Shown: positions 1-14,455 of the stretch, in pieces
How the letters are laid out: the number at the start of each line of letters is the position of its first letter
How positions within the stretch are numbered: the first letter of the stretch is position 1
UHGV virus genome: UHGV-0102464
From: a virus
Reading direction: 5' to 3' (one strand)
Length of the DNA stretch: 14,455 nt
Notes under the pieces: model-generated
Seen by the model: only the letters and a program-made list of their open reading frames with translations
Told to the model about the DNA's origin: nothing
Database searches by the model: none
Program-made: the position numbers and the translations under genes

Positions 1-176
1 CCGGAGGAAAACATGGTCAGGCAAAAGTGTAGCGGTATTAGGCGCAGCTATTTAGTTTTCCATATAAAATAAATAGTTGCGATTGTCTAATCTGTTGTAG
101 TAAATGTGCAGACATTGAAAGAGAAAGACCAGGTTTTTCTTTTCTAACCGAAGGGAAGAAAAGCAAGGGGAAACCG

Positions 177-220
177 GAGAAGCAAGCGCAGCGGCTTCGC
201 AGAGTTAGCCCTTGCTTCTC
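177..220. repeat. GC-rich inverted repeat (10-bp arms GAGAAGCAAG / CTTGCTTCTC, 24-nt spacer) within AT-rich non-coding flank
   Basis: Read directly: arms at 177-186 and 211-220 are exact reverse complements. No T-run follows on either strand, so it is not an obvious intrinsic terminator. Function unknown. Confidence 0.5.
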
Positions 221-930
221 TTATAATTGGCATTATTCATTCAAGAACAATAGGATCTTCGCTTGTACAAGCGAAGCTATAATAAAAACAATCAATTAAT
301 TATTTTAAAAGTATTAAACAAGAACCTATTGACATTCATAAAATACAAGTTATTTATAATGTATGCCATAAATAAAAAGTTTTATGTCATATGTATCCTG
401 CACTATGTGCAGTTAATGTACCACTTGTCCCATAGATGGGAATATTGGAAAGGTTACTTTGTTTTGAAGTAGCCTTTCGTCCTTCAATATTAACGATTAC
501 TTATTGCTATTACCAAGTCCAGTCGAATCGAAGAACATCTTTTATCTGAAACGACTCCTAATACCCGGTTAAAGCCACAATAACTCTCGCATACGTAGAC
601 CAAAGAAAAATTATGATATTAAATATGTGATTTTTTTTAGTGTTAAGTTGAATAATTAAATACTGGAGAGTTTTCTGTGCACTACCAATTGCTGGTTCAT
701 CTGTTCTGCCGCTGATGTTTCTGACGAATCTCCCGGTGACACAGAACTGTCCCTCTCTACCAGCCTTTATTCGACTCAATGTCCGGCTGCTGATACGCAG
801 TTATCCCTTCGTATCAATGACTGACACTTAAACGTAATGCTTTGGTTGCTGGCGTATCTGACAGCTTCTTCGGCGTGAAGGTCGTTGTGTAAGTATACTT
901 CTTGGTTTATTTAGGCTATATAAAACATGA

Positions 931-1827
931 CTATGACTTGCTGTTTTCAGTAAGAGTCTTATCATCCAAAGAATTTATTCTAGAAATTCTTTTTAACTCA
1001 TTAAGATAATCAACCTCGTTTTCTAAGAACCAATGAAGAACTTTAGAATTGCCAAGTAATTTATTAATATATGACTGGATTATAACGAATTTCAACATAT
1101 CTGAACCATACTCGGTTTGAAGCTTTTTCGTTTCTTCCGAAGTTGTTGCCATTTCTTGTTCCAGACGAAGTATGGTTTTTTTTATATCCTTTTTATAGGG
1201 AGTGTTTTTCCCTTTATTTACTATCATCGATGCCGGTGTTGCATCCAAGATGCTCATTGCAAATTTTTTACTATAATTATCAAAATTAATCATTGTACCG
1301 ACTGCTTCAATTTGGCGAATTGGCTTCATTTTCCTCAAAACGTCAAATGTAGCCTTAGGTATAGGTTTATCAGAAAGTTTCGCAATTACACTTGGATCTA
1401 TGCCGTTCATCACATTCGCTTTATCTTTTATGGCATCAACAGATATGCCCAAAGCAGCACTAAGTTTTTCAATTGATACTTTTGCCAGAGACTTAATTAT
1501 CATTCTATGTTCTTCAACTACATTTATATGATTCACTTGTTTGTTAGGAGTGAAAGCATCATCTATGCTCGAAAGTATACATGGGGCTTTTTCTATACCT
1601 AAGTCTTTTAAAGCCTCAACCCTTAAATGGCCATCAAGTATCTTAGTGACATCTTTATCTTTGTCATAGAATACTATTATTGGTTCAATAATACCTAAGC
1701 TTTCGATAGAGGTAACTATTTGATGATATTTATGGCTTCGCTTTACGTTTTCTAATAATTCCTTAGATGGAATTAACTTATTAGTTTCCAGGTAAATAAA
1801 ATTATCGCCAAAACGTATCTGAATCAT
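931..1827 (-). CDS. ParB/Srx-fold (ParBc-like) domain protein, 298 aa, paralog of the upstream gene
   Basis: ORF track 931..1827. The ATG at 1827-1825 overlaps the stop of the upstream gene (ATGA), indicating translational coupling. The N-terminal ~100 aa fit the ParB N-terminal pattern (..SIESLGIIEPIIVF..ILDGHLRVEALKDLGIEKAPCIL..), followed by an HTH-like stretch (KLSAALGISVDAIKDK). The C-terminal ~150 aa are unassigned. Very AT-rich. Confidence 0.7.
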   Translation of the reverse strand: MIQIRFGDNFIYLETNKLIPSKELLENVKRSHKYHQIVTSIESLGIIEPIIVFYDKDKDVTKILDGHLRVEALKDLGIEKAPCILSSIDDAFTPNKQVNHINVVEEHRMIIKSLAKVSIEKLSAALGISVDAIKDKANVMNGIDPSVIAKLSDKPIPKATFDVLRKMKPIRQIEAVGTMINFDNYSKKFAMSILDATPASMIVNKGKNTPYKKDIKKTILRLEQEMATTSEETKKLQTEYGSDMLKFVIIQSYINKLLGNSKVLHWFLENEVDYLNELKRISRINSLDDKTLTENSKS

Positions 1828-2719
1828 TTTAATACCTCTTTGTTTACTGGGGTTAATATCTGAGATGGTAGTTCTGAAAGATTCTCTTGTTCAAGTATAT
1901 GTTGAAAGCTTTTATTCATCATTATGATGTTAAAAATCTCATTTACTATTAGTAGGTTGGTTTTTATGAATTTTGAGTTGTTATAAACAGATTTATGTTC
2001 AGCGATACTATTTTCATAAAGCTCAATCAACTCCTCTGCAGTCATCCTTTTTGATGGTTTGTGATAATAAAATCCGGCTGCTTTTGCACCTTTATTCCCA
2101 ACTGTTCTTTGATTTAGAATGTGTTTTATCTTTATAATGTCCCGACTTTTTATTAATTTTTTATCATATGCTTCGGTAAGAATATCTTGTGCTTCCTCAG
2201 TTTCACATCTTGCAAATTGCACTGCGAGATACAGAGGCAAATTACCCCGTTCGACTGCTGAGAGAAGTTTATGCTCTCCCTTATCAAGTAGCATATTAAT
2301 ACTGCTCACCCAGTTCGATGAATATCCAGTAATCTCACTTATTTCGGAGTCTGAAAGTCCTCTGATTTTCATGTCTTTAATCACCTGTAATAACTCATTA
2401 GAACGTGGTCTTCTCCTTGCAATGTTTTCAACTAAACTCATAACGTAAGCATCTTCTTCTGATACATCTCTTATAATTGCTGGAATAATAGTTTCACCTA
2501 ATGCAACGAGAGCCTCTATTCTCCCTTGACCACAAATTAAAGCATATTTGAAATCGCCTTCATCAATAGCTCTTACGCTTATAGGCTTGCTTAATCCTCT
2601 TTTTTTATGCTTTCCTTTATTTCTTCATGCACTAACTTATTTCTTGTTCGTGGGTTAAGAAATTTTATTTTTGCAATCTCAATTTGAATTATTGGGAATT
2701 CATTTTTTTCAGGCAGCAT
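1824..2719 (-). CDS. ParB/Srx-fold (ParBc-like) domain protein interrupted by a frame change at an A7 homopolymer; full length (~298 aa) only with a -1 frameshift or a 1-nt tract length change
   Basis: The track ORF 1824..2441 (205 aa) begins MSLVENIARRRP.., which is the middle of a ParB domain. ParB homology continues upstream of that ATG in the same frame (RGLSKPISVRAIDEGDFKYALICGQGRIEALVALGETIIPAIIRDVSEEDAYV) up to a stop at 2627-2625, with no in-frame start. A second register begins at ATG 2719-2717, with a GAGGG Shine-Dalgarno about 6 nt upstream and overlapping the last codons of the recombinase gene. It reads MLPEKNEFPIIQIEIAKIKFLNPRTRNKLVHEEIKESIKK and then stops at 2593-2591. The two registers meet in the A7 run (T7 at 2600-2606 on the + strand). 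The joined protein aligns colinearly with the downstream paralog. Confidence 0.6.
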
Positions 2720-4265
2720 ATAGTTCCCTCACTTTCATGCGAGTAATAATTTGTAGAAGTTTATCAAGATTATCAAATCTATAGAGATCTAATCGAATGT
2801 TGTTTGTTTCCGTCATGCACATTTTATTATATTCGTTTTCAATCTTTGGTATGATATAAAAATCAAGAGGTGAAATATTTTGTGAATTCATTCGTATAAC
2901 AATTGTTATGTCTGCTTTCTGTGAGTTATCAAACCGGACTTTCCATCTAAGTTTACCTGATTTCATATGTATGCATTTAGTAACAAGGACGGAAATTAAA
3001 AACTCATCATTGATGTAAAGCATTGGGGCATATTTATACTCGTCTATATGACAGTTACTTTTTAAAATTTCACCCTTAAAATCCTCAATTATCTCTGAGT
3101 GAAATGATCTTAGTGCTTCATTTATTTTGAGATAGCTGTAATCATGTTCTGGCTTATAACCAATCAAAGTATATGCTCTTAAAAGACCACCAAATCGGGT
3201 TCTATAAACAGAAGATGAAGGGCCTGTATCATCTTCATCAATGATAAAGCCTGATAGTTTTCCATTAGATTCTAATTTTTGTTTTAGTTTTTCTAATAGA
3301 TCTTCATTAGTCAAATGAATGGATCGGAGCTGAATTATTTCTTGAGCTTTATTGTGTTTTTTCTTTGAAATAATAGGTTTATATGCCTTGTCACATCTAA
3401 CCCATTCATGTTTGGGGTTTTTTACAAGCCTACTTTTTAATTTAGATGAGGTTTTGTTATATATGTTGTTTCCAATATATTTTTCATTTGTCAAAATTTG
3501 ATGTATTTTTGCACGAGTCCATAATGTTCCATTTTCTGCAGGTATGTTCTGTTCATTTAATCTCTCAGCAATAATGAATTCTGGGACGTTATTATCTATA
3601 AAGAGATCATATATTCTATTTACAATTTTTATTTCATTTTTTGGTCCCGGAATTAATATTACCCTATCTGTTTGAATACTCTTTCTTTTGCGGAAACTCA
3701 ATATTTCTTTAGCTATGCCATTTTCGTCTACTAAAAGACGTCTCAGCCCATAACCAGCCATACCGCCTTGATGATAACCAAGCTTTATTAAATTTACTTG
3801 CCCTATAAATACCTTTTCAGATAAATTCCTGCTGTGATATGCAGCACTAGATCTTTTTATATTCAGTATAACAGAGGACTCTAAAGGGAAATCTTTAGTG
3901 GGTATAGGTTCGGAACAATATATAAGATCTACACCATTTCTCTCAAATAGAAAGGAATAATATGCCGCTTCATCACTATTTTGAAAACGACCAAAACGGC
4001 TCACATCATAAAATAATACAGCCTGTATATCTATTTTCTTTTGTTCTACATCGCTAAGTAACTGCTGCAAAGAATGCCTGCCTACGATACTGACTCCGCT
4101 CTTACCTGCATCATCGTAGGTATAAGCGATTTCCATATTGTTCTTTTCAGCATAATCTTTGATATATTCGGACTGATTATGTAAAGAATATTGCTGATGG
4201 TCGGTAGACATCCTCAAGTACTGCGCGACCCTAACTCTATGATTTTTGTCATTTTCGCTAGCCAT
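2709..4265 (-). CDS. Large serine recombinase (resolvase/invertase catalytic domain + recombinase domain; C-terminal half divergent)
   Basis: 518-aa ORF with an AGGT Shine-Dalgarno about 7 nt upstream of ATG 4265-4263. N-terminus carries the serine-recombinase catalytic motifs: VAQYLRMSTDHQ (Y-x-R-x-S-T-x-x-Q with nucleophile Ser), DDAGKSG, and VLFYDVSRFGR. A recombinase-domain pattern follows (..LIPGPKNEIKIVNRIYDLF..IAERLNEQNIPAENGTLWTRAKIHQILTNEKYIGNNIY..HEWVRCDKAYKPIISKKKHNKAQEI). I saw no CxxC zinc-ribbon pairs in the C-terminal ~220 aa. Confidence 0.85.
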   Translation of the reverse strand: MASENDKNHRVRVAQYLRMSTDHQQYSLHNQSEYIKDYAEKNNMEIAYTYDDAGKSGVSIVGRHSLQQLLSDVEQKKIDIQAVLFYDVSRFGRFQNSDEAAYYSFLFERNGVDLIYCSEPIPTKDFPLESSVILNIKRSSAAYHSRNLSEKVFIGQVNLIKLGYHQGGMAGYGLRRLLVDENGIAKEILSFRKRKSIQTDRVILIPGPKNEIKIVNRIYDLFIDNNVPEFIIAERLNEQNIPAENGTLWTRAKIHQILTNEKYIGNNIYNKTSSKLKSRLVKNPKHEWVRCDKAYKPIISKKKHNKAQEIIQLRSIHLTNEDLLEKLKQKLESNGKLSGFIIDEDDTGPSSSVYRTRFGGLLRAYTLIGYKPEHDYSYLKINEALRSFHSEIIEDFKGEILKSNCHIDEYKYAPMLYINDEFLISVLVTKCIHMKSGKLRWKVRFDNSQKADITIVIRMNSQNISPLDFYIIPKIENEYNKMCMTETNNIRLDLYRFDNLDKLLQIITRMKVRELYAA

Positions 4266-4435
4266 GCACGAAACCTCATGGGTGATTCAATACAATGTAG
4301 AGGATAAAATTGATCAAATTTTAACCGAATTCAACTGTTTTATCATTGATTAGAGCGAATTTGGTAGATCTTCGAGGTGTATGATAATCGAGAAGAGATG
4401 TGAATTATTTAGCTGATATGACCGACAGCTTTCGT

Positions 4436-4485
4436 TATGTGGACTCAATGTCCCCATTTGTAAATGGCTATGCTTAGTCCACATA
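4436..4485. repeat. Nested palindrome: 10-bp inverted repeat TATGTGGACT / AGTCCACATA enclosing inner palindrome CCATTT-GT-AAATGG
   Basis: Read directly: outer arms at 4436-4445 and 4476-4485, inner palindrome at 4454-4467. It lies in the intergenic region between the integrase stop (4548) and the recombinase start (4265). No flanking T-run, so a protein-binding or recombination site is more likely than a terminator. Confidence 0.5.
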
Positions 4486-4547
4486 GGTTAATGGTGTGAT
4501 TATTAATTCTTTAACTAAATCAAGATAGTTAATCCATCATGGGAGAG

Positions 4548-5777
4548 TTATGCGGCAATAACTTTGCATTTTTGAGACGAAACATAGTCACTCCACCATT
4601 GCATGAGAACCACCCGTTCAGTGAGATACTCTGCACGATTGTAGGCTGCAATTATTTCATCTTTCTTCGAGTGGGCAAGGGCGGCTTCTAAGACATCAGT
4701 CCTAAACTTGCCAGACTCCTCAGCAGCCGTTCTAGCAATGGATCGCATACCGTGAGCTACAAGCTCACCTCCGAAGCCCATACGGATTATGGCCGCATTA
4801 GCTGTTTGTTCATGCATGTGATTGAGTGGAGCTTTGATACTGGGGAACACCCACTCTCTATGCCCGCTGATGACTTTCATTAAATCCAAAACTCGCAAAG
4901 CTTCTTTGCTCAGTGGAACTTTGTGAGGCTTCTTCATTTTCATAAACTCCGCCGGGATGTTCCACATGCCAGTTTCAATATCAATATCTGACCATCTTGT
5001 GCGAACAGCTTCACCTGGGCGAACCCATGTGAGAAGTTGCCACTCAATCAGTAGCCTTGTTTCCAAACGGATAGAAGCATTGTTTAGAGCAACCAAGAAG
5101 CGAGGGAGTTCGGAAGGGGGTAATGCTGGCATATTCTGTTTTTTTGGCTTGCTGAACCGTTGCCCCAGGTTGTCTGCCGGGTTGAATTCTATGAGTTCTT
5201 CTGTTGCTGCATAGCGGAAAATTTCATTCAGGCGGGATATGATGCGGCGAAGTGTTTCAAGGACACCTCGTTTTTCTATGGGTTCTAAATGCTGTTTAAG
5301 CATTTTAGGGCGAATCTCCTTAATTGGGGTATCACCCAATGTGGAAAAGATATTTCTCTCTAGGCTTCGCCAGATGTCGTTAGCATGATCTTGGGAGATG
5401 CCTGACGTTTTGACTTTCTCATCAAGCCACTTCTTGGCTACTGCTTGAAATGTATGTTCCGTGGCATCTTTCAGTGCATTGGCTTTTTGGTTGTTATGAA
5501 CTTGGGGGTCTATACCATTTGTAAGCAACGACAAGTATTCATCACGTAAAGCTCGTGCCTTCGCAAGTGTAAGGTGAGGATAGGTTCCTAAGCTCACCTT
5601 AGTTCGCTTTTTGGTCACAGGCACTGCATATCTGAAATACCAATTTTTCTTCCCTCCCTTCGCCAGGGGAGCGATTCGCAACAGCAAACCATCGCCGTCA
5701 AAAAGGTTAACCTCTTTTTCGGCAGGTTTGGTGCTTTTGATTTCAGTGTCAGTGAGCTTCTTAGCGATTTTGGCCAT
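4548..5777 (-). CDS. int: Tyrosine site-specific integrase, P4/IntA (CP4-57-like) family
   Basis: The track ORF runs to 5858, but the conserved N-terminus MAKIAKKLTDTEIKSTKPAEKEVNLFDGDGLLLRIAPLAKGGKKNWYFRY (arm-type DNA-binding domain typical of P4-like integrases) starts at ATG 5777-5775, so I call that start. The C-terminal catalytic region carries the HxxR box (LVAHGMRSIARTAAEE) and the catalytic tyrosine context (IIAAYNRAEYLTERV). Confidence 0.9.
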   Translation of the reverse strand: MAKIAKKLTDTEIKSTKPAEKEVNLFDGDGLLLRIAPLAKGGKKNWYFRYAVPVTKKRTKVSLGTYPHLTLAKARALRDEYLSLLTNGIDPQVHNNQKANALKDATEHTFQAVAKKWLDEKVKTSGISQDHANDIWRSLERNIFSTLGDTPIKEIRPKMLKQHLEPIEKRGVLETLRRIISRLNEIFRYAATEELIEFNPADNLGQRFSKPKKQNMPALPPSELPRFLVALNNASIRLETRLLIEWQLLTWVRPGEAVRTRWSDIDIETGMWNIPAEFMKMKKPHKVPLSKEALRVLDLMKVISGHREWVFPSIKAPLNHMHEQTANAAIIRMGFGGELVAHGMRSIARTAAEESGKFRTDVLEAALAHSKKDEIIAAYNRAEYLTERVVLMQWWSDYVSSQKCKVIAA

Positions 5778-5875
5778 GTTTGGGACCCTCGATTTTAGGA
5801 CCCATCTTCGTGGGTCCCATTCAGGGTGCCATAACTCGTAGTTCTCAGCAATTCTCACTAGACTACAATAGACGT

Positions 5876-5908
5876 AAAAAAGCCCGCAGAGCTTGTGCTG
5901 TGCGGGCT
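5876..5908 (-). terminator. Rho-independent terminator (minus strand) between the ssrA stub and the integrase
   Basis: On the minus strand: 8-bp stem AAGCCCGC/GCGGGCTT-type (plus 5881-5888 pairs with 5901-5908) with a 12-nt loop, followed by a U-run (A-run 5876-5880 on the plus strand). Confidence 0.55.
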
Positions 5909-5943
5909 TAGTAGACTTTACTGAACTTCAGTACATCAATATT

Positions 5944-5978
5944 TGGTGGAGCTGGCGGGAGTTGAACCCGTGTCCGAA
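5944..5978 (-). other. ssrA: 3'-terminal fragment of ssrA (tmRNA): attachment-site core copy, not an intact gene
   Basis: The reverse complement of 5944-5978 reads TTCGGACACGGGTTCAACTCCCGCCAGCTCCACCA. As I recall it, the 3' end of enterobacterial tmRNA is ..TTCGGACGCGGGTTCAACTCCCGCCAGCTCCACCA, so this matches with one mismatch. Similarity stops immediately upstream, and no tmRNA 5' end (GGGGCUG.. acceptor strand) or tag-peptide region lies within 400 nt, so it is a stub. Confidence 0.75.
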
Positions 5979-6303
5979 TAATGCTTAACCTATTGAATAT
6001 TAATGTTTTGTCTTTTTTGAAAGGCCTCAAGTGCATTTTACGTGCATATCGTGGTCCCTCTAACGTCCTGATTCCGTCCAACATTTTGAAATACTCACGA
6101 CGCTACAGAGCTGCTGAAATGGCGGTTTTCCCGTCGTATTCAGCCAGGTATTTACCGTAATTGCGGAACAGCATTTCCGGCCCTTTATGCCCCATCTGCC
6201 CGGCAAGCCAGAAAAGGTTTACGCCCTGGCTAATGTGTCTGGTGGCGAATGTGTGGCGGGTCTGGTACGGGGTACGGTAGCGACACTTTTTTGCACGTTA
6301 GTG

Positions 6304-6333
6304 TTGACTTTGCATAAAAATGTCCTGTATGCT
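6304..6333 (+). promoter_or_regulatory. Sigma70-like promoter (TTGACT -35, 18-bp spacer, TATGCT -10); candidate late promoter pR'-like
   Basis: TTGACT at 6304-6309 and TATGCT at 6328-6333. It is followed about 35-60 nt downstream by an intrinsic terminator, the arrangement of lambdoid pR'/tR' upstream of lysis genes. Confidence 0.5.
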
Positions 6334-6366
6334 TTCCATCGTGGGATATTACGCCTACACGACATC

Positions 6367-6392
6367 AAACCCGCCTCAGCGCGGGTTTTTTT
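6367..6392 (+). terminator. Rho-independent terminator (tR'-like) ending a very short transcript
   Basis: Stem CCCGC(6370-6374)/GCGGG(6381-6385) with loop CTCAGC, followed by T7 (6386-6392). Confidence 0.7.
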
Positions 6393-6456
6393 ATTTCCAG
6401 CAAGGTTTTTCTTCAATGCGTTTGTTATGTTGTGTTTTTTAACTGAGGGTCAGTTG

Positions 6457-6651
6457 ATGAGCGCAGATGAAAACTTGTTGAGTAAAATTCAGGAAGTACG
6501 GACGGTAGAGGATGTGGAGCAAGTCAATTTGGGCCTTTCTAAAGGCTGGGTGATTTTGAAGATCACCGAGAGCTCTACAGTCTGGGAAGATGGCAGCAAA
6601 AGCAGCCTTGTTACATATCACATGGGCAAGCCGAAGGCATTGCCGGTCTGA
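6457..6651 (+). CDS. Hypothetical small protein (64 aa)
   Basis: ATG 6457 with a GAGGG Shine-Dalgarno 7 nt upstream. The track ORF 6187..6651 extends upstream across the promoter and terminator, so the upstream part is rejected. No recognisable motif. Confidence 0.45.
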   Translation: MSADENLLSKIQEVRTVEDVEQVNLGLSKGWVILKITESSTVWEDGSKSSLVTYHMGKPKALPV

Positions 6652-6687
6652 TCAAGCCTTACCAAATCAAAAATTTCAATCATATAT

Positions 6688-6713
6688 AGGCCACCTCACG
6701 GTGGCCTTTTTTG
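6688..6713 (+). terminator. Rho-independent terminator upstream of lysis cassette 1
   Basis: AGGCCACC (6688-6695), loop TCAC, GGTGGCCT (6700-6707), then a T-run to 6712. Confidence 0.75.
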
Positions 6714-6761
6714 TTTCCCCTCAACCTTCTGAGAGGGTCAACAGCAATAAGAGGGGGCAAA

Positions 6762-7166
6762 ATGTCCGCAGAACCGATATCTGCAACGGTAACGGCAGGC
6801 GTGGCCGCCGGCACTACCGGAATCACCTTCGCGACGATGTTTCCAGAAGCGACACCCGCTGTAATGCTTTGCTCACTTGCCGGGGCTGCTCTTTATGTCC
6901 TGAGCAGTGAAGACCACAAAATCTGGAAGCAGATACTGTTCGCGCTCATCTCATTCATTGGTGGAGTCTACTGCGCCGGAACAGCATCTGAAATCATCGC
7001 TGCGCTAATCAATGCGGCATTAAGTCACCTTTCTCCTCCAGTTTCCGTGAAGGTATCTCCAGCTATGGGTGCCCTGCTGGCTTCATCGGTTTCTGTCACC
7101 ATCCTGGCTCGCATCCTCAAACGGTCGAAGACAGGAGACTTACCCGGATTGAAGGGGGAAGAATGA
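6762..7166 (+). CDS. Putative holin / lysis-associated membrane protein (134 aa)
   Basis: ATG 6762 with a GAGGGGG Shine-Dalgarno. Hydrophobic segments (..AGVAAGTTGITFATMF.., ..ILFALISFIGGVYCAGTA.., ..MGALLASSVSVTILARIL..). First gene of a lysis cassette; stop overlaps the next start (ATGA). Confidence 0.5.
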   Translation: MSAEPISATVTAGVAAGTTGITFATMFPEATPAVMLCSLAGAALYVLSSEDHKIWKQILFALISFIGGVYCAGTASEIIAALINAALSHLSPPVSVKVSPAMGALLASSVSVTILARILKRSKTGDLPGLKGEE

Positions 7167-7444
7167 CGTGGCAAACACTGATCCTGAACATTAACGCTGT
7201 TGCATGCATCCTCATCACCATACGCCTGATGTTCTTCAGGAAGCGGAGCTTACGGCGCCGCCGTCTGATGGAGTTTCTGGCCTATGGGCTGATCCTCGCT
7301 CCAGCGTTTACCGCTTTCCGCATCTGGCATGGTGATTACGTGCAGGTCGACTACGGAGAGTTGGTCGTCAACCTTGTTGTCTGCATAGCTGTATGGCGAG
7401 CACGTGGCAACATCGCAAGAATAGCAGGGGAAAGCACAACGTGA
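7163..7444 (+). CDS. Small membrane protein (93 aa), holin/antiholin-like
   Basis: ATG 7163 overlaps the upstream stop, with a GAAGGGGG Shine-Dalgarno. Two hydrophobic helices separated by a basic stretch (RKRSLRRRRL). Lies between the putative holin and the endolysin. Confidence 0.4.
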   Translation: MTWQTLILNINAVACILITIRLMFFRKRSLRRRRLMEFLAYGLILAPAFTAFRIWHGDYVQVDYGELVVNLVVCIAVWRARGNIARIAGESTT

Positions 7445-8070
7445 ACCAATCACAATTTCAAAAGGCGGCTGGCATTAGCGCCGGGCTCGCTTCGCGCTGG
7501 TTTTCGCATATCGATGCTGCAGTGAAGGAATTCGGCATAACCGCGCCGCTCGATCAGGCCATGTTTATCGCGCAGATGGGCCATGAGTCCGGCGGTTTCA
7601 CCCGGCTGGTGGAAAACCTGAACTATGCGGCAGAAAACCTGGTACCTACGTTCGGCAAGCATCGCATTACTGCGCAGCAGGCCGCCGCACTCGGCAGAAC
7701 GGCAACGCAACCGGCAAATCAGAAAGCGATAGCCAATCTGGTTTACGGCGGTGAGTGGGGCAAAAAGAACCTGGGCAACCAGGTTGCTGGTGATGGCTGG
7801 AAATATCGCGGCCGAGGCCTTAAGCAAATCACCGGGCTTAGCAACTATCGCAGTTGCGGCCAGGCTCTCAAACTGGATCTGGTTTCGTATCCAGAACTAC
7901 TGGAACGAGATGAATACGCTGCGCGCTCCGCCGCATGGTTCTACGTCTCGCACGGATGCCTGCTCCATTCAGGCGATGTGGAGCGCGTCACGCTGCTTAT
8001 CAATGGCGGACGTAACGGGCTGGATAAACGCCGCGCGCTGTTTAACCTGGCGAAGTCTGTGCTGGTGTGA
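7441..8070 (+). CDS. Endolysin, glycoside hydrolase family 19 (chitinase-like lysozyme)
   Basis: GH19 hallmark motifs: FIAQMGHESGGF and YRGRGLKQITGLSNYR (compare the GRGPxQ(L/I)(S/T)xNY motif of GH19 chitinases). Start placed at GTG 7441, which overlaps the upstream stop (GTGA); the alternative ATG 7393 lacks a Shine-Dalgarno. Confidence 0.8.
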   Translation: MNQSQFQKAAGISAGLASRWFSHIDAAVKEFGITAPLDQAMFIAQMGHESGGFTRLVENLNYAAENLVPTFGKHRITAQQAAALGRTATQPANQKAIANLVYGGEWGKKNLGNQVAGDGWKYRGRGLKQITGLSNYRSCGQALKLDLVSYPELLERDEYAARSAAWFYVSHGCLLHSGDVERVTLLINGGRNGLDKRRALFNLAKSVLV

Positions 8071-8077
8071 GGTCACT

Positions 8078-8347
8078 ATGGGATTAGAAACAATCGTCGG
8101 TATTGCTGCCCTGATAATGGCAGCTATCGCTGGTGCTTTTGGCATTGGTCATTCACGCGGCACCAGCAAAGCGGAAGCCAAAGCCGATCAGCAGCGCACT
8201 GAAGAACGTGCAACAGCTACTGAAGCTGTTGCTGAACGCCGGGTAGAGACAACAAAAGGAGCCAGGGATGTACAGCAAACTGTTAATCATCTTCCTGATG
8301 ACGATGTTGACCGTGAGTTGCGCGAAAACTTTACCCGCAAAACCTGA
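8078..8347 (+). CDS. Rz-like inner-membrane spanin (i-spanin) component, copy 1
   Basis: ATG 8078, 8 nt after the endolysin stop. N-terminal transmembrane helix (IVGIAALIMAAIAGAFGIG) then a charged helical region. The track ORF 7751..8347 is the same frame extended upstream into the endolysin and is rejected. Assignment is by position and architecture. Confidence 0.6.
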   Translation: MGLETIVGIAALIMAAIAGAFGIGHSRGTSKAEAKADQQRTEERATATEAVAERRVETTKGARDVQQTVNHLPDDDVDRELRENFTRKT

Positions 8348-8489
8348 ATTAACGGACACAGCCTGTGACTGGGTGGACATTATCTACCTCACTGAACACG
8401 ATATTGCCGTGCTGGATAAGCAGACGAAGCGGGACATATTGGTGCACAATAAATCAGTGCAGGCTAACTGTGCAAAAAAAATAAATTGA
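8268..8489 (+). CDS. Rz1-like outer-membrane lipoprotein spanin (o-spanin), overlapping the 3' end of the Rz-like gene in another frame, copy 1
   Basis: ATG 8268 with an AAAAGGAG Shine-Dalgarno. Signal peptide plus lipobox-like ..MTMLTVSCAK; several Cys. The ORF begins inside the Rz-like gene and extends past it (P2 lysB/lysC-like overlap). Its sequence is conserved in copy 2. Confidence 0.6.
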   Translation: MYSKLLIIFLMTMLTVSCAKTLPAKPELTDTACDWVDIIYLTEHDIAVLDKQTKRDILVHNKSVQANCAKKIN

Positions 8490-8590
8490 AAATGAGAAAT
8501 GAAAGTAGTAAATATGTGCCAAGCTGTGATGAAACCAGCAATGAAGCACGTTCTTTAATCCGCATTCTCTGAAAAAGAGAAAGAATTATA

Positions 8591-8618
8591 AGCCTCGGTT
8601 TAATACCGGGGCTTTTTT
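8591..8618 (+). terminator. Rho-independent terminator after lysis cassette 1
   Basis: AGCCTCGG (8591-8598), loop TTTAATA, CCGGGGCT (8606-8613), then a T-run to 8618. Confidence 0.7.
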
Positions 8619-8768
8619 GTATCTGCATTTCACCGCGCACCGCAGCGCATTCAATCACGTCGAACCCAACCTTTTGGAATGAGCCGTTGAGGAGTCAGTT
8701 AGTGCTGGCGAGCCTCGACGGGCTGATTTCCTATGCGACAAAGGTTCATTTCAAAGAAGGTAAACGCA

Positions 8769-9356
8769 ATGCACGACTCAACAAGCGGGTTGGTCTTTGG
8801 AGTTGGCAAACTCGATGTACACCCCGTTATCAATAAAGGGGTAAAACTCAGGTCATACAGAGTATGGTTTGGGATGCTGAAAAGATGCTACGGAAAGGGA
8901 ACGGCATTTAAAAGTGAATACCAAGGATGCTCAGTCGATGAGCAATGGCACAAGTTCAGTAATTTTCAGCAATTTTACGACAAGAATTACTTCGAAGGCG
9001 CCGAGTTAGACAAGGATTTGCTTTATCTGGGTAATAAAGTTTACTCAAAAGATAGGTGCGTGTTCATCCCGTCATTCCTCAACGCCTTTATCACTGTTAG
9101 GCCGCCAAGAAACAACAACCTTCCGATTGGCGTATACCAAGTTAGCAACAGCCGGAAGTATCAATCAGAAATACAAGTTAATGGTGAAAGAAAATATCTA
9201 GGACTCTTTGAAGATCCGCATGAAGCTCACTCCGCTTGGTTTAATGAAAAGCTGAATATGGCAATTTCCTACAAAGAGTTGTGCGATTCTCTGCACCCTG
9301 ATTTGTATGGCGGACTCATAACAAAAATAGAAAGCATGCGAGTCTATCCGGATTAA
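8769..9356 (+). CDS. Hypothetical protein with AP2-like DNA-binding domain in C-terminal half
   Basis: ATG 8769 with a GAAGG Shine-Dalgarno 8 nt upstream (the track start 8733 has none). The C-terminal stretch IGVYQVSNSRKYQSEIQVNGERKYLGLFEDPHEAHSAWFNEK resembles the AP2 domain found in phage HNH/AP2 proteins. The N-terminal half (..SYRVWFGMLKRCYGK..) is unassigned. Confidence 0.5.
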   Translation: MHDSTSGLVFGVGKLDVHPVINKGVKLRSYRVWFGMLKRCYGKGTAFKSEYQGCSVDEQWHKFSNFQQFYDKNYFEGAELDKDLLYLGNKVYSKDRCVFIPSFLNAFITVRPPRNNNLPIGVYQVSNSRKYQSEIQVNGERKYLGLFEDPHEAHSAWFNEKLNMAISYKELCDSLHPDLYGGLITKIESMRVYPD

Positions 9357-9481
9357 TAAATTAATAATTCTACATTTTCAGGGCCCTTGGGAATCACCCT
9401 CGACGCTTTGTTGGTAAATCAGCCCGACGGCCCTGACCTTCTCACACACAGCTTCCCGATCTTTCATCGGAGGCGGTAACT

Positions 9482-9793
9482 ATGGCTAAGCGTATGCAAG
9501 ACAAAGAGAGCATTGCCGGGATGTCCTGGCTGGTTCTGCTGATCATTGCTTGCTGGGGTGGACTTGTCCGCTACCTGATAGATGTGAAGCAGAGCAAGGC
9601 AACATGGAGCTTGATCAATGCTCTTGCCCAAATGGTGGTTTCAGGGTTTACCGGCGTTATTGCTGGCCTGGTGAGCATTGAAAGCGGACTGAGCATTTAC
9701 ATGATTCTGGCAACCGCGGGGATAAGCGGCGCGATGGGCTCCGTAGCGCTCACGTATTTCTGGGAACGAATCACCGGAGTGAAAGCACAATGA
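9482..9793 (+). CDS. Holin (103 aa), lysis cassette 2
   Basis: ATG 9482 with a GGAGG Shine-Dalgarno 8 nt upstream. Hydrophobic helices; stop overlaps the endolysin start (ATGA). Confidence 0.6.
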   Translation: MAKRMQDKESIAGMSWLVLLIIACWGGLVRYLIDVKQSKATWSLINALAQMVVSGFTGVIAGLVSIESGLSIYMILATAGISGAMGSVALTYFWERITGVKAQ

Positions 9794-10329
9794 CAGCAGA
9801 CCAGATTATCGAGGGGATCCTCGGCAAGGAGGATGGTTATGTCGATCATCCGTCGGATAAAGGCGGGCCGACCCGCTGGGGCATCACGCAGACCACCGCC
9901 CGTGCACATGGCTACACCGGTGATATGCGGAACCTGCCCAGGGAAACAGCAAAGCAAATCCTGCTGAGCGATTACTGGACCGGCCCCCGGTTTGACCAGG
10001 TGGCAGCTCTATCTACGTTACTGGCAGATGAGCTTTGCGACACTGGCGTGAACATGGGGCCATCTGTAGCCAGTAAGTTTTTCCAGCGCTGGCTGACCGC
10101 AATGAATATGCGCGGAAAGCTGTATCCCGATCTGATTCCGGATGGCGCCATTGGTCCCCGAACCATCACCGCGCTTAAGGGATACCTTTCCGCCCGCGGG
10201 AAAGAGGGTGAACAGGTTCTGTTGCGTGCGCTGAACTGCAGCCAGGGTGCCAGATACCTCGAACTGGCGGAGGGCCGCGAAGCCAACGAGGATTTTCTCT
10301 ACGGCTGGGTTAAGGAGCGTGTCCTGTGA
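9790..10329 (+). CDS. Endolysin, glycoside hydrolase family 108 N-terminal domain + peptidoglycan-binding C-terminal domain
   Basis: N-terminal EDGYVDHPSDKGGPTRWGIT matches the GH108 signature (EGGYVDDPxDxGGxTxxGIT). C-terminal ..IPDGAIGPRTITALKGYL.. resembles the PG-binding-3 type domain. Confidence 0.8.
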   Translation: MTADQIIEGILGKEDGYVDHPSDKGGPTRWGITQTTARAHGYTGDMRNLPRETAKQILLSDYWTGPRFDQVAALSTLLADELCDTGVNMGPSVASKFFQRWLTAMNMRGKLYPDLIPDGAIGPRTITALKGYLSARGKEGEQVLLRALNCSQGARYLELAEGREANEDFLYGWVKERVL

Positions 10330-10670
10330 AGATGATCATTTTCGCTTTGCTTGTGCTGGTGGCTGTGCTCGTTCTGTTACTTCTGCGCAAATATACCCGG
10401 CTGGAGTTCGTAGGGCATGCCAGCTTGCTGCTGAAAACGTGGTCTGTAAAGCTGGGAGCTATCGGCGCGCTGGTTGGTGTATGGGCGCAGTCGTTCCCGG
10501 ATGCTGCGCTGCACGCCTGGGCGGTGCTGCCGCCGGATATCAAAAACATCCTGCCGCCAAACATCGTTGCGTTGATTAGCCCTGCGCTGGTGGTGCTGGC
10601 CGTACTATCGCAATACGTACGCCAGCCAGCATTGAAAGAAAAGGCCGACGAACTGAAGGAGCAGCAATGA
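10326..10670 (+). CDS. Membrane protein between endolysin and spanins (LysA/antiholin-like position)
   Basis: Start GTG 10326 (overlaps the endolysin stop) or ATG 10332, with an AAGGAG Shine-Dalgarno at 10310-10315. Strongly hydrophobic (IIFALLVLVAVLVLLLL.., ..LVALISPALVVLAVL..). Stop overlaps the Rz-like start (ATGA). Confidence 0.5.
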   Translation: MKMIIFALLVLVAVLVLLLLRKYTRLEFVGHASLLLKTWSVKLGAIGALVGVWAQSFPDAALHAWAVLPPDIKNILPPNIVALISPALVVLAVLSQYVRQPALKEKADELKEQQ

Positions 10671-10942
10671 GCTTTGAAATTATCGCGGGACTGGTGGTCG
10701 TCATCCTGGGTGCTATTGCTGGCGCGTTCGGCATTGGTCATGCTCGCGGGGCCAGTAAGGCGAAAGCCAAAGCTGATCAGCAACGTACCGAAGAGAACGC
10801 CGCTGCTACTGTCGCCGCGGCAGAACGCCGTGCTGAAGTCACGAAAGGGGCCAGCGATGTACAGGAAGACGTTAAGCGTATGGGCGATGACGATGTTGAT
10901 CGGGAGTTGCGCGAAAAGTTTACCCGCCCCGGTAGTCGTTGA
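10667..10942 (+). CDS. Rz-like i-spanin component, copy 2
   Basis: ATG 10667 with a GAAGGA Shine-Dalgarno. Roughly two-thirds to three-quarters identical to copy 1 by eye (AIAGAFGIGH..KADQQRTEE..DDDVDRELRE.FTR conserved). Confidence 0.6.
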   Translation: MSFEIIAGLVVVILGAIAGAFGIGHARGASKAKAKADQQRTEENAAATVAAAERRAEVTKGASDVQEDVKRMGDDDVDRELREKFTRPGSR

Positions 10943-11081
10943 CACGGCCTGCAGCTGGGTGCGGATCATCTACCTGACTGACCACGATATCGATGTGTTG
11001 GATAAGCAGACCAAGCGCGACATTCTGGCGCACAACAAAGCAGTGCAGGCCAACTGCCAGAGCATTACCCCTACTCATTGA
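10857..11081 (+). CDS. Rz1-like o-spanin lipoprotein, copy 2 (overlapping and extending past the Rz-like gene)
   Basis: ATG 10857 with an AAAGGGG Shine-Dalgarno. MYRKTLSVWAMTMLIGSCAK.. then DTACSWVRIIYLTDHDIDVLDKQTKRDILAHNKAVQANC, closely matching copy 1. The track ORF 10674..11081 is the same frame with a spurious upstream extension. Confidence 0.6.
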   Translation: MYRKTLSVWAMTMLIGSCAKSLPAPVVVDTACSWVRIIYLTDHDIDVLDKQTKRDILAHNKAVQANCQSITPTH

Positions 11082-11249
11082 GTTAAATAAATGGCCTCAT
11101 CCTTGAGGTCCACGAGTAAGTAAACGCAAGGTCTTTTATGTAATGGCTCTTTTAGCCTAGGAGCCAACTCAGAAACAACAAGCGTAAGCGGTAGATATTT
11201 ATGATTTTTTTTCTGCTGCTTATCCACAACCTACCGAAGAGGCTAAGAA

Positions 11250-11366
11250 ATGATTGCAACCATAGGAACCATTATCGTTTGGACGCTCATTGTTGTGGAT
11301 GGAGTTATTGGGATTCTGTGCGCGTTTATCGGTCTTATGTTCCTCATTAACTTTCCCATTCGCTAA
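11250..11366 (+). CDS. Possible small hydrophobic peptide (38 aa), not in ORF track
   Basis: ATG 11250 preceded by GAAGAGG. Translation MIATIGTIIVWTLIVVDGVIGILCAFIGLMFLINFPIR is a single predicted transmembrane helix. Too short for the track; existence uncertain. Confidence 0.3.
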   Translation: MIATIGTIIVWTLIVVDGVIGILCAFIGLMFLINFPIR

Positions 11367-11470
11367 CCCCACCAAGGGATAAACCAGCCTTCATCCCCAC
11401 GTGAGGATATTACAGAAGCCACTGACTGAGTGGCTTAGATAATGTTCCCGACATCGCACAGAGGTAAAAC

Positions 11471-11716
11471 ATGGCAGAGATCACACCGGCAGAACAGATT
11501 CGACTGAATCTGCTTTCCACCCTGAACTACGACACCGCGGCCGCTGCTAAGGCGATTGAGTTCGTCCAGGATAGCCAGCTCAAATATCAGCTGTTCATCC
11601 AGCAGTACAACCGCGTGACAACTGAATCAGAAGTTGTGGCGCGGACCATCAAAGCGGTTCAGGAGTCGGCGGAAGCGTTAGCGCTGTTTGATACCGCGGC
11701 TGAGCAGGCCAGTTAA
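11471..11716 (+). CDS. Hypothetical protein (81 aa)
   Basis: ATG 11471 with a GAGGT Shine-Dalgarno at 11461-11465. No recognisable motif. Confidence 0.5.
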   Translation: MAEITPAEQIRLNLLSTLNYDTAAAAKAIEFVQDSQLKYQLFIQQYNRVTTESEVVARTIKAVQESAEALALFDTAAEQAS

Positions 11717-11719
11717 GGC

Positions 11720-11755
11720 ATTACAGCAGGCATTCACGTAGTGCCTGTGATAATG
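11720..11755 (+). repeat. 36-bp repeated element, copy 1 (ATTACAGCAGGCATTCAC-GT-AGTGCCTGTGATAATG) with internal inverted repeat and extended -10-like TGTGATAAT
   Basis: Read directly; 34/36 identical to the copy at 12061-12096. Contains CAGGCA..TGCCTG inverted arms and TG-n-GATAAT. Confidence 0.6.
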
Positions 11756-12025
11756 TTAAAGCTCCTGTATAAGGGGCAGTTGTATGATGTCATGCAACGA
11801 AGCAACCAAACTATGGAAAGTCCGGGTAATGGTTTTGGAGTGAATGTGACGTTTCGCAACGATATAGATGGCTACTTTTTCCTGTTGCTTAGTATGTGGC
11901 CAGTGCTAATGGTTTTATTCCTGGGATTGTCCTCTGCATTTTACGGTGTGTTAATGCCTAAAACGGCAATTGCTTGTCTGGTGATCGCTGCCGCTGTGGG
12001 TACCGTTGGGTGGTTCTATGGATAG
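11741..12025 (+). CDS. Hypothetical small membrane protein (start uncertain)
   Basis: The track ORF begins at GTG 11741 inside the repeat; the true start may be an internal ATG. C-terminal part is hydrophobic (FFLLLSMWPVLMVLFLGL.., ..IACLVIAAAVGTVGW..). Confidence 0.4.
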   Translation: MPVIMLKLLYKGQLYDVMQRSNQTMESPGNGFGVNVTFRNDIDGYFFLLLSMWPVLMVLFLGLSSAFYGVLMPKTAIACLVIAAAVGTVGWFYG

Positions 12026-12060
12026 GCATCCTGGAAACATTTGGTCAGGTTATAGACTGT

Positions 12061-12096
12061 ATTACAGCAGGCATTCACTGAGTGCCTGTGATAATG
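12061..12096 (+). repeat. 36-bp repeated element, copy 2 (ATTACAGCAGGCATTCAC-TG-AGTGCCTGTGATAATG)
   Basis: Differs from copy 1 only at the 2 central bases; lies about 40 nt upstream of the AT-rich moron start. Confidence 0.6.
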
Positions 12097-12134
12097 ATAA
12101 ATTACTTACTCACACCTTTTGTGAGGTAAGAGAA

Positions 12135-12431
12135 ATGAAGCATCTTGTACATTCTTTTTTATCTGTATCATCTGACGGTGCAACTATTAAGTACGAAATA
12201 TATTCTCAAGATCAGGAATTAGGACATTTAAAGAAGATCCCGGAGGGTAGTTGTCAGATCATTAAGTCGATATATCAAAAGGATAGCAATAGTTTTAAGT
12301 TAATAGACTTAAACGTAAATGTTGAGGATTTATTTAAGGCAAATCAACCCAAGCCAAATACTTGGTACTCGGATGGGCAAGACCGTGTAAATCTCGACAT
12401 GCTTATCAATTATCTTGATAACTTAAAATAA
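12135..12431 (+). CDS. AT-rich moron-like gene, hypothetical protein (98 aa)
   Basis: ATG 12135 with a GAGGT Shine-Dalgarno about 7 nt upstream. Composition is markedly more AT-rich than flanking phage genes. Preceded by the repeat/promoter-like element and followed by a strong intrinsic terminator. No recognisable motif. Confidence 0.6.
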   Translation: MKHLVHSFLSVSSDGATIKYEIYSQDQELGHLKKIPEGSCQIIKSIYQKDSNSFKLIDLNVNVEDLFKANQPKPNTWYSDGQDRVNLDMLINYLDNLK

Positions 12432-12450
12432 TTGTAAGTTGAAATCATTT

Positions 12451-12478
12451 AGACCTCGAATCCCGAGGTCTTTTTTTT
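12451..12478 (+). terminator. Rho-independent terminator after the moron
   Basis: AGACCTCG (12451-12458), loop AATCC, CGAGGTCT (12464-12471), then T8 to 12478. Confidence 0.8.
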
Positions 12479-12487
12479 GGAGGTTTT

Positions 12488-12721
12488 ATGCGCCTGACTG
12501 TTCTCAGTAACGACCCTGGTGAACGTATATGGCCTAGCCGTGAACGCATAACGGTGTACCTCAACGGTGTCGAGGTCAAGTACGTTTTTACCGCCGATGA
12601 TCAGAAGGGCGAAGTTATCGCTGCTACGCTCGACTGTCTTGGCAACCTCATAGCCGAGAATGGCGAGATTAAGCGCCAGAAGCTGTTAGGTCAGGTGAGG
12701 ATAGAGCGATGCCCGCGCTAA
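12488..12721 (+). CDS. Hypothetical protein (77 aa) immediately upstream of and overlapping the HNH endonuclease gene
   Basis: ATG 12488 with a GGAGG Shine-Dalgarno just upstream; overlaps the HNH start by 13 nt. Confidence 0.5.
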   Translation: MRLTVLSNDPGERIWPSRERITVYLNGVEVKYVFTADDQKGEVIAATLDCLGNLIAENGEIKRQKLLGQVRIERCPR

Positions 12722-13059
12722 TACCCCGCGCCTGCCGTAAGCGTGGATGTCCTGGAACTACCACAGACCGCTTAGGCTACTGCGAGAAGCACCGCAACGA
12801 AGGCTGGCAACAGCATCAACAGGGAAAGAGTCGCCACGAGCGTGGCTACGGTAGCCAGTGGGATATCAGGCGTGCGCGCATCCTGAAACGCGACAACCAT
12901 TTATGCCAGAACTGCCTTCGCAGCGGGCGAGCTGTCGCAGCAAAGACGGTTGACCACATCAAGGCCAAGGCTCATGGGGGTACCGATGACGATTCGAACC
13001 TCGAAAGCCTGTGCTGGCCTTGCCATCGAACGAAAACCGGGCGCGAACGCATAAAGTGA
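12709..13059 (+). CDS. HNH endonuclease (phage packaging-associated type)
   Basis: Cys/His-rich: ..CRKRGCPGTT..GYCEKH.. and the HNH core ..VDHIKAKAHGGTDDDSNLESLCWPCH... AGGTGAGGA Shine-Dalgarno before ATG 12709. Position directly upstream of the terminase small subunit is typical. Confidence 0.85.
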   Translation: MPALIPRACRKRGCPGTTTDRLGYCEKHRNEGWQQHQQGKSRHERGYGSQWDIRRARILKRDNHLCQNCLRSGRAVAAKTVDHIKAKAHGGTDDDSNLESLCWPCHRTKTGRERIK

Positions 13060-13215
13060 TATCGATTCTCATTTGAGGCGAGGCAGAGGGGGCGGGGTCA
13101 AATCCCTGACGGCAAAGGCCAAAAGGACCGCCGCCTAACCTTTTTTCACACCGCCGCAGGTTAGAAAACTTTTTTTTGGGGTCCCCCATCCAATGATTAA
13201 TAGGAGTTTTCGATT

Positions 13216-13713
13216 ATGCCAGGACCACCGAAAACCCCGACACATCTGGCTTTAGTGAAGGGGAACCCATCCAAGCGCCCGATCAATAAGAACGAGCCAA
13301 AACCCCCGTCAGGGGTCCCCCCAATACCGAAACATTTCGATAAACAGGGTAAGTACTGGTTCAAACGGATTGGTGAGGAACTTGATGCCGTCGGCGTGTT
13401 GACCACGCTGGATGCTAAAGCGCTGGAGTTGTTGATAGAAGCCTATGTTGAATACCGGCATCACTGCGACACGCTTGATCGTGAAGGTTACACCTATGCC
13501 GTCTACAGCGAAGATGATTCAGATGAAGGAGGGGAGCGGGAAATCAGAATGATCAAACCGCACCCTGCAGCAGTCATGAAGGCTGACGCGTGGAAACGGA
13601 TCAGAGCGATGCTGAGCGAATTCGGCATGACACCTGCCAGCCGATCAAAGGTTGGTGCAAAAGACCCGGCAGAAGCCGACCCACTGGAAGAATTTCTTAA
13701 AAAGCGCAAATGA
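13216..13713 (+). CDS. Terminase small subunit (P27-family-like)
   Basis: ATG 13216 with a TAGGAG Shine-Dalgarno. ..LDAKALELLIEAYVEY.. pattern and placement between the HNH gene and the large terminase gene. Confidence 0.75.
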   Translation: MPGPPKTPTHLALVKGNPSKRPINKNEPKPPSGVPPIPKHFDKQGKYWFKRIGEELDAVGVLTTLDAKALELLIEAYVEYRHHCDTLDREGYTYAVYSEDDSDEGGEREIRMIKPHPAAVMKADAWKRIRAMLSEFGMTPASRSKVGAKDPAEADPLEEFLKKRK

Positions 13714-13716
13714 TGA

Positions 13717-14455
13717 ATGGCAACCGTTGCAGATGGATTCCGCTACGCCGAGCGCGTGGTATCTGGCGATATCGTTGCTGGCGAACTGGTGCGTCTTGCG
13801 TGCCAGCGGTTCTTTCATGATTTAGAGCACGGCCCGGAGCGCGGTGTTTATTTTGATGAAGGCCGCGCCCAGCACGTTCTCGATTTTTATAACTTCGTCC
13901 CCCATGTGAAGGGGCACTTGACCGGCAAGCCGATCGAGTTGATGGACTGGCACACCTTCATCCTGATTAACCTTTTCGGGTTTGTCGTCCCGCTGATAGA
14001 TGAAATAACGTTTGAGAGCATTCTTGACGACGATGGCGACCCCATGTTTGTGCGTCGCTTTCGTACCGCCTATGACGAAGTAGCGCGTAAAAATGCAAAA
14101 TCAACGCTTTCGTCTGGCATCGGGCTTTATATGACTGGTGCCGACGGTGAGGGTGGTTCTGAGGTTTATTCCGCAGCAACAACCAGGGATCAGGCCCGCA
14201 TCGTGTTTGATGATGCGAAGCGCATGATTAAGCTGGCTCCGAAAACACTGGGCCGGTTGTTTGGTAGTAACAAGTTGAATATTCACCAGGAGCGGACGGG
14301 TTCAAAATTCGAACCTGTAGCCAGTGATGCGAATAACCTCGACGGCCTTAATATTCACTGCGGGATCGTTGATGAGCTTCACGCACATAAAACCCGTGAC
14401 GTCTGGGAAGTTCTCGAAACGGCAACCGGCGCCCGACTACAGTCTCTTATCTTCG
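13717..14455 (+). CDS. Terminase large subunit, 5' portion (open to window end; absent from ORF track because no stop is reached)
   Basis: Translated by hand from ATG 13717: MATVADGFRYAERVVSGDIVAGELVRLACQRFFHDLEHGPERGVYFDE... with no stop to 14455. Deviant Walker-A-like ..VARKNAKST.. and Walker-B-like ..HCGIVDELHAH... The adjacent ATG 13713 is in a frame that terminates after 36 codons. Confidence 0.8.
   Translation, partial: MATVADGFRYAERVVSGDIVAGELVRLACQRFFHDLEHGPERGVYFDEGRAQHVLDFYNFVPHVKGHLTGKPIELMDWHTFILINLFGFVVPLIDEITFESILDDDGDPMFVRRFRTAYDEVARKNAKSTLSSGIGLYMTGADGEGGSEVYSAATTRDQARIVFDDAKRMIKLAPKTLGRLFGSNKLNIHQERTGSKFEPVASDANNLDGLNIHCGIVDELHAHKTRDVWEVLETATGARLQSLIF

Follow-up and report, generated by a model that had tools for sequence, protein, structure and literature searches.

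A ParB/RepB-family gene split at an A7 run in an Escherichia coli ssrA island is probably a recent frameshift pseudogene

One of the closest described counterparts of the gene studied here, gene B, is the E. coli E24377A allele WP_000936460.1, which is annotated there and in BLR(DE3) as a single 897-nt CDS for a "ParB/RepB/Spo0J family partition protein". It lies in the same operon and the same ssrA island as gene B in the window (the whole stretch of 14,455 nt that was analysed), and its nucleotides are identical to those of gene B except at one A tract, where it has A8 and hence a single 298-aa ORF. Alleles with the defect of the window are also on record: in the complete E. coli genomes MLI104K2, ETEC4073, ETEC1706 and PSS-10 the same gene has an A8-to-A7 contraction with the same pattern of a 42-aa and a 205-aa ORF, and PGAP has added the note "frameshifted" in all four. 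These four alleles differ from that of the window in their background (Val29 for Leu29, and further SNPs), so their lesions are independent events or errors, and two of the four genomes carry additional homopolymer defects.

More distant relatives are the chromosomal ParB/Spo0J proteins, Noc and KorB (PDB 1vz0, 7bnk, 7nfu and 8qa8), which share with gene B the ParB_N signature with its GxxR motif and a helix-turn-helix middle region. The similarity is distant, with an E value of 2e-12 at best, and unlike these proteins gene B has a RepB-type C-terminal domain, has no adjoining ParA partner, and occurs together with a paralog and a large serine recombinase. With respect to its split reading frame, the described systems for comparison are the -1 frameshift sites of dnaX and the IS3 family, which are conserved and combine an A_AAA_AAG heptamer with a Shine-Dalgarno-like stimulator ~10 nt upstream and a hairpin or pseudoknot downstream. 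Gene B is like them in having a lysine-codon slippery heptamer in phase, but none of their site, stimulator or structure features is present or conserved in it.

Gene B is read from the minus strand, on which seven T residues at 2600-2606 of the plus strand form an A7 run. Its frame 0 starts at ATG 2719, with a GAGGG Shine-Dalgarno 6 nt before it, and ends as AGC ATA AAA AAA GAG GAT TAA with the stop at 2593-2591, giving an ORF of 42 aa (2591..2719, minus strand) that comprises residues 1-40 of the ParB_N region followed by Glu-Asp. The -1 frame (1824..2600, minus strand) goes on as AGA GGA TTA AGC (RGLSKPISVR...) to the stop at 1826-1824 and encodes residues 41-298, including GQGR at residues 64-67 and the RepB C-terminal domain, so that a -1 slip on A7, or an A8, would give a product of 298 aa. 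The first start in this downstream frame is ATG 2441, with no start codon before it, and the 205-aa ORF that begins there retains the RepB domain only. The whole ParB_N domain is consequently not contained in any single ORF in the window, but divided between the 42-aa ORF and the remainder in the -1 frame. This split layout had been proposed in a sequence-only reading, and it was borne out when the minus strand was read and all frames were translated; the Shine-Dalgarno, the 205-aa ORF and an AAGGA element that had been pointed out upstream of the tract are all present. Since there are seven other A/T runs of at least 7 nt in the window, a run of such length is not unusual; the continuation of homology across two frames is beyond chance.

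The fused product of the two frames matched Pfam ParB_N (PF02195) over residues 12-100 (E 1.5e-13; 51.1 bits, the Pfam gathering score being 26.3), and the match crosses the junction at residue 40, which confirms that ParB homology runs through both frames as had been claimed. A RepB match in Pfam follows over residues 102-214, and the repaired gene scored 60 bits with TIGR00180, for which the cut-off is 58.45. The tract codons align with SIREKGLLQP of the Thermus thermophilus Spo0J structure 1vz0, inside the ParB box, and GQGR aligns with the GERR of the same structure as the equivalent of the ParB GERR motif, its G64 and R67 being invariant in an alignment of 19 homologs. Judged by these matches, the repaired gene B would belong to the ParB/RepB/Spo0J family. 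A search for homologs at E <=1e-10 returned 357 proteins of about 288-302 aa, all encoded by uninterrupted single ORFs. Salmonella, Pantoea, Xenorhabdus and Serratia have homologs of gene B.

Gene B lies in the middle of a minus-strand operon of three genes, between the large serine recombinase (gene A, 2709..4265, minus strand; 518 aa, with Resolvase and Recombinase domains) and paralog C (931..1827, minus strand; 298 aa, with a RepB match and a weak ParB_N match), which has an A8 run of its own at 1176-1183. The likeness to paralog C that had been drawn from the sequence stands as far as length goes, both proteins having 298 aa, but they are only 19% identical. The last 11 nt of gene A (2709-2719) overlap the start of gene B, and the stop of gene B overlaps the start of paralog C as ATGA (1824-1827); these overlaps suggest translational coupling, and an early stop in gene B could thus be polar on C. 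No ParA/RepA ATPase was found in the operon, the neighbours of gene B being the recombinase, paralog C and the tyrosine integrase of the island (4548..5777, minus strand; 409 aa as annotated in relatives).

Window positions 136-5978 are 99.8% identical to the ssrA island that E24377A shares with BL21, REL606, E. coli C and hundreds of other E. coli. Homology to E24377A and similar genomes stops at 5978, where the ssrA (tmRNA) 3' end with the attachment-site core (5946..5978, minus strand) marks the island border. Taken as reverse complement, these 33 nt correspond to the final 33 nt of ssrA; position 5971 is T, against C in the E. coli relatives compared (e.g. L001, L002, L010-L012 and L016-L018, compared loci being given by such numbers). 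Rfam and ARAGORN gave no hits in the window, in which no complete tmRNA gene was found. At the other end, about the first 135 bases gave no alignment to the E. coli islands, which match from 136 or 137.

Past the border, the window contains the 3' part only of a second tyrosine integrase (5981-6286), which is complete in STECUZB006 (L005, 5972-7144), and at about 6286 homology jumps to phage late genes (6286-14455). These include a lysis cassette with holin_8, holin_3_7 and GH19 (about 6762-8070), a second, consecutive lysis cassette with holin_3_3, GH108 and DUF7940 (about 9482-10670), an HNH gene (12709-13059) and terminase genes from about 13216. Any complete E. coli genome covers at most 43% of the window, and the part past ssrA represents either the decayed remains of a tandem prophage at ssrA or a chimeric junction in a metagenome contig of 4.3x coverage.

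The serine recombinase-ParB-ParB cassette (931-4265) is kept as a unit across Enterobacterales (L019, L021, L022-L031), and its neighbours vary between type I restriction-modification, His-Xaa-Ser (Hxs) radical-SAM, RES-domain, ankyrin-repeat and UvrA-like ATPase genes. At the 68%-identical locus of Dickeya ananatis (CP146223.1; L020, 944-3001) no recombinase gene is called upstream of the ParB pair, where there is a 2-kb stretch without a called gene, and the recombinase may have decayed or be missing from this locus. NCBIfam models returned only generic ParB and recombinase matches on the cassette, PADLOC 2.0, which has no model for the cassette, assigned none of A, B or C to a defence system, the sole matches being weak ones of methyltransferase models to the ParB_N region, and a literature search on the cassette found nothing relevant.

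Comparison with relatives places the lesion at a single base. Against E24377A, window positions 136-5978 showed 10 substitutions and one indel, the missing A, in 5843 nt. A census was then taken with a 56-nt blastn query around the tract against complete E. coli RefSeq genomes; it replaced a 47-nt megablast with an A7-only query that had given no matches, its seeds having probably been masked as low-complexity sequence. I found that nearly all of the 629 complete genomes have A8 and an uninterrupted 298-aa ORF, and that at least four have A7: three exact matches, and PSS-10 with A7 plus a SNP, a class for which the count is a lower bound. PSS-10 came to light on sampling 60 evenly spaced genomes, 58 of which had the span one base longer. 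In a public assembly collection the exact paralog C protein of the window occurs in 18,137 blocks, and an intact 298-aa B accompanied it in 10 of the 10 matches listed. A8 was also present in L001, L002, L005, L007 and L021-L031, and orthologs of gene B at 86%, 84% and 68% identity read ATA AAA AAA AGA/AGG in one frame, again with A8. This comparison of tract lengths had been proposed as a check on the sequence-only reading, and out of the three explanations offered there (a programmed -1 frameshift, a phase-variable switch or a recent inactivation) it favours the last, A8 and an intact 298-aa ORF being found in near-identical E. coli islands.

The residues that flank the tract, I38 and G42, are invariant in the alignment of 19, whereas more distant members have NK, KN, DR, EK, NA, HS, RN, RS or RA in place of the Lys-Lys that they enclose. 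Of the 28 Lys codons of gene B, 23 are AAA and 5 are AAG, and Lys-Lys-Arg written in these codons gives A8, so the retention of A8 in orthologs needs no special selection.

The reading that I consider likely is that gene B in the window carries a recent, heritable A8-to-A7 deletion which has made it a frameshift pseudogene. Ancestrally it would have been an ordinary single-ORF gene of the ParB/RepB family in which Ile-Lys-Lys-Arg (ATA AAA AAA AGA) forms the A8, and one A would have been lost in the lineage of the contig, most likely by replication strand slippage. Near-identical relatives with an intact gene, E24377A and L025, are one base apart from it in a mononucleotide run, and WP_000936460.1 should be identical to the protein that a conceptual -1 joining of the two ORFs gives. 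Translation of the contracted gene would stop after 42 residues, and a restart would be possible only at ATG 2441, a start that lacks a good Shine-Dalgarno and whose product would miss the ParB_N core including the GxxR motif; for these two reasons gene B is taken to be a pseudogene and presumably non-functional. The premature stop may in addition leave the translation of paralog C, which lies downstream, less tightly coupled to that of B. As a counterpoint, the A7 is a heptamer in phase and its -1 product is the wild-type protein, so some expression is conceivable: traces of full-length B may arise from spontaneous slippage of the ribosome or of RNA polymerase on A7, which would be incidental and not programmed (the "leaky frameshift" phenomenon is reviewed in PMC5009743). 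The lesion is nothing new in kind, since PGAP already labels the same defect of the same gene "frameshifted" in other E. coli.

The main rival explanation, which I regard as unlikely, is that the organism has A8 and that a low-coverage metagenome assembly under-called the homopolymer. The window is contig NODE_1799 of the ENA metagenome assembly ERZ1303435, with a coverage of 4.32 according to the contig name, and part of the public A7 signal is indeed technical, since several A7 assemblies have other shortened homopolymers. Such shortened tracts cluster in complete genomes with several defects of this kind: MLI104K2 has both its B and C tracts shortened, and ETEC1706 combines the shortened B tract with a T5-to-T4 change in C. 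ETEC4073, ETEC1706 and ETEC4088 resemble one another in strain name and all come from pigs; further 1-nt homopolymer deletions occur in L012 and L014-L016; and the near-adjacent accessions EHV58664 (a 42-aa B fragment) and EHV58666 (a 244-aa truncated C) suggest a single genome with both genes affected.

Against an artefact, the missing A is the sole indel of the window in 5.8 kb, the other T8 runs (631-638 and 1176-1183) being intact, and the same A7 is found on the same haplotype in other assemblies. The exact 42-aa peptide of the window occurs in 23 contigs of public collections, and, not counting the window or L013, which is the same contig (100% identical over 12.7 kb), eight further public assemblies have the 42-aa allele with A7, 1186A and 4282G together. 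The SNP 1341C was rejected as a marker of this haplotype, as BL21-type alleles share it; 1186A and 4282G proved usable. Four of these assemblies (L010, L011, L017 and L018), like the window, show no other indel over at least 5 kb, and they stem from different samples and sources, namely the NCBI isolate GCA_011763215.1, a JGI metagenome and two Logan runs. A7 is thus probably real in the lineage of the window. A recent date of the deletion within this haplotype follows from L025 (GCA_030370785.1), which has the haplotype of the window but A8, and 4794T as in L011, L012 and L016. A7 was also found on other alleles, i.e. the Val29 alleles, PSS-10 and the diverged L009, so the event appears to recur, as expected for an 8-nt run. 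L009 (GCA_000321045.2, HE578946.1, 8456-10129) is an island copy of 97.8% identity in which, besides the A7 in B, the recombinase gene is broken into two parts (406 + 104 aa) and seven indels set the copy apart from the window; this pattern suggests either an assembly prone to errors or an island in decay.

It is far less probable that the A tract is maintained as a phase-variable (contingency) switch, with B toggling at high frequency between ON (A8) and OFF (A7 or A6). Tract length is polymorphic among close relatives, with A6, A7 and A8 all present in public assemblies: in a collection of 15 billion proteins the 42-aa B fragments of the A7 type come from about 380 contigs (23 + 330 + 19 + 8) and the 51-aa fragments of the A6 type from about 30. 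The occurrence of A7 on several allelic backgrounds implies repeated origin, A7 and A8 are both found on one nearly identical haplotype, and A8 is retained at the DNA level in orthologs down to 68% identity. The control tract speaks against a switch. The A8 run of paralog C (1176-1183) has lost one base in 4 of 620 complete E. coli genomes (exact matches to a query with the run cut to 7), compared with at least 4 of 629 for B, and in the large collection the 244-aa truncated forms of C come from about 130 contigs, within about 3-fold of the ~380 for B. Gene B thus does not vary above a comparable tract in complete genomes, and as the A8 of C is shortened just as often, the tract of gene B is not special; this, and the partial co-occurrence of the variation with other shortened homopolymers, counts against the phase-variable switch that had been raised from the sequence. 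OFF forms are also rare, at roughly 1% or less, intact B having accompanied paralog C in every listed match, and the A8 follows from Lys-Lys-Arg and the AAA preference described above without selection on the tract, Lys-Lys itself being absent from more distant orthologs. Moreover, 8-nt A runs mutate far too slowly for classical phase variation in mismatch-repair-proficient E. coli. A weaker form, in which the A8 runs of B and C are low-frequency contingency tracts and A7 is a leaky, reversible OFF state owing to incidental -1 slippage, is just as improbable; if it were true, the island at ssrA could turn its ParB pair off by way of these tracts, A7 alleles would stay partly functional, and the pseudogene would not be dead.

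As to programmed recoding, the A7 has the zero-frame phase of an X_XXY_YYZ slippery heptamer (A_AAA_AAA, 2606-2600), a -1 shift on it would give the intact protein, and an AAGGA lies upstream. This AAGGA (2617-2613), however, is separated from the heptamer by only 6 nt and is not conserved, the orthologs L019 and L020 having AAAGAA or AAAGAT in its place. No stimulatory RNA structure was found downstream: the 87 nt from the tract onward had an MFE of -11.8 kcal/mol, whereas shuffled sequences averaged -13.35 kcal/mol (z +0.64) and 149 of 200 of them folded at least as well. A_AAA_AAA is a far weaker slip site than A_AAA_AAG in E. coli (PMC5009743), and for programmed transcriptional slippage it is relevant that selection against slippage becomes evident from runs of about 9 A/T in a large proportion of bacterial genomes (PMC1088944). 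Recoding by design at A_AAA_AAA, through a programmed -1 ribosomal frameshift or through programmed transcriptional slippage, with products of 42 and 298 aa, is scarcely credible on this evidence: the split form is rare and annotated as a frameshifted pseudogene, it is missing in about 99% of the copies in E. coli and in every ortholog examined (68-99% identity), as well as in the 357 single-ORF homologs, and its 42-aa product would be a domain fragment, the tract lying inside the ParB box with GQGR beyond the stop.

The frameshift probably has little import beyond annotation: the two ORFs would be recorded as one frameshifted pseudogene of the ParB/RepB family and not as a recoding site, or corrected to A8 if reads show A8. 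It does hold a caution, in that a one-base deletion in the A8 run of a Lys-Lys-Arg stretch by itself yields an in-phase slippery heptamer at the ORF break. The serine recombinase-ParB-ParB cassette, which is kept across Enterobacterales, may reward study more than the frameshift.
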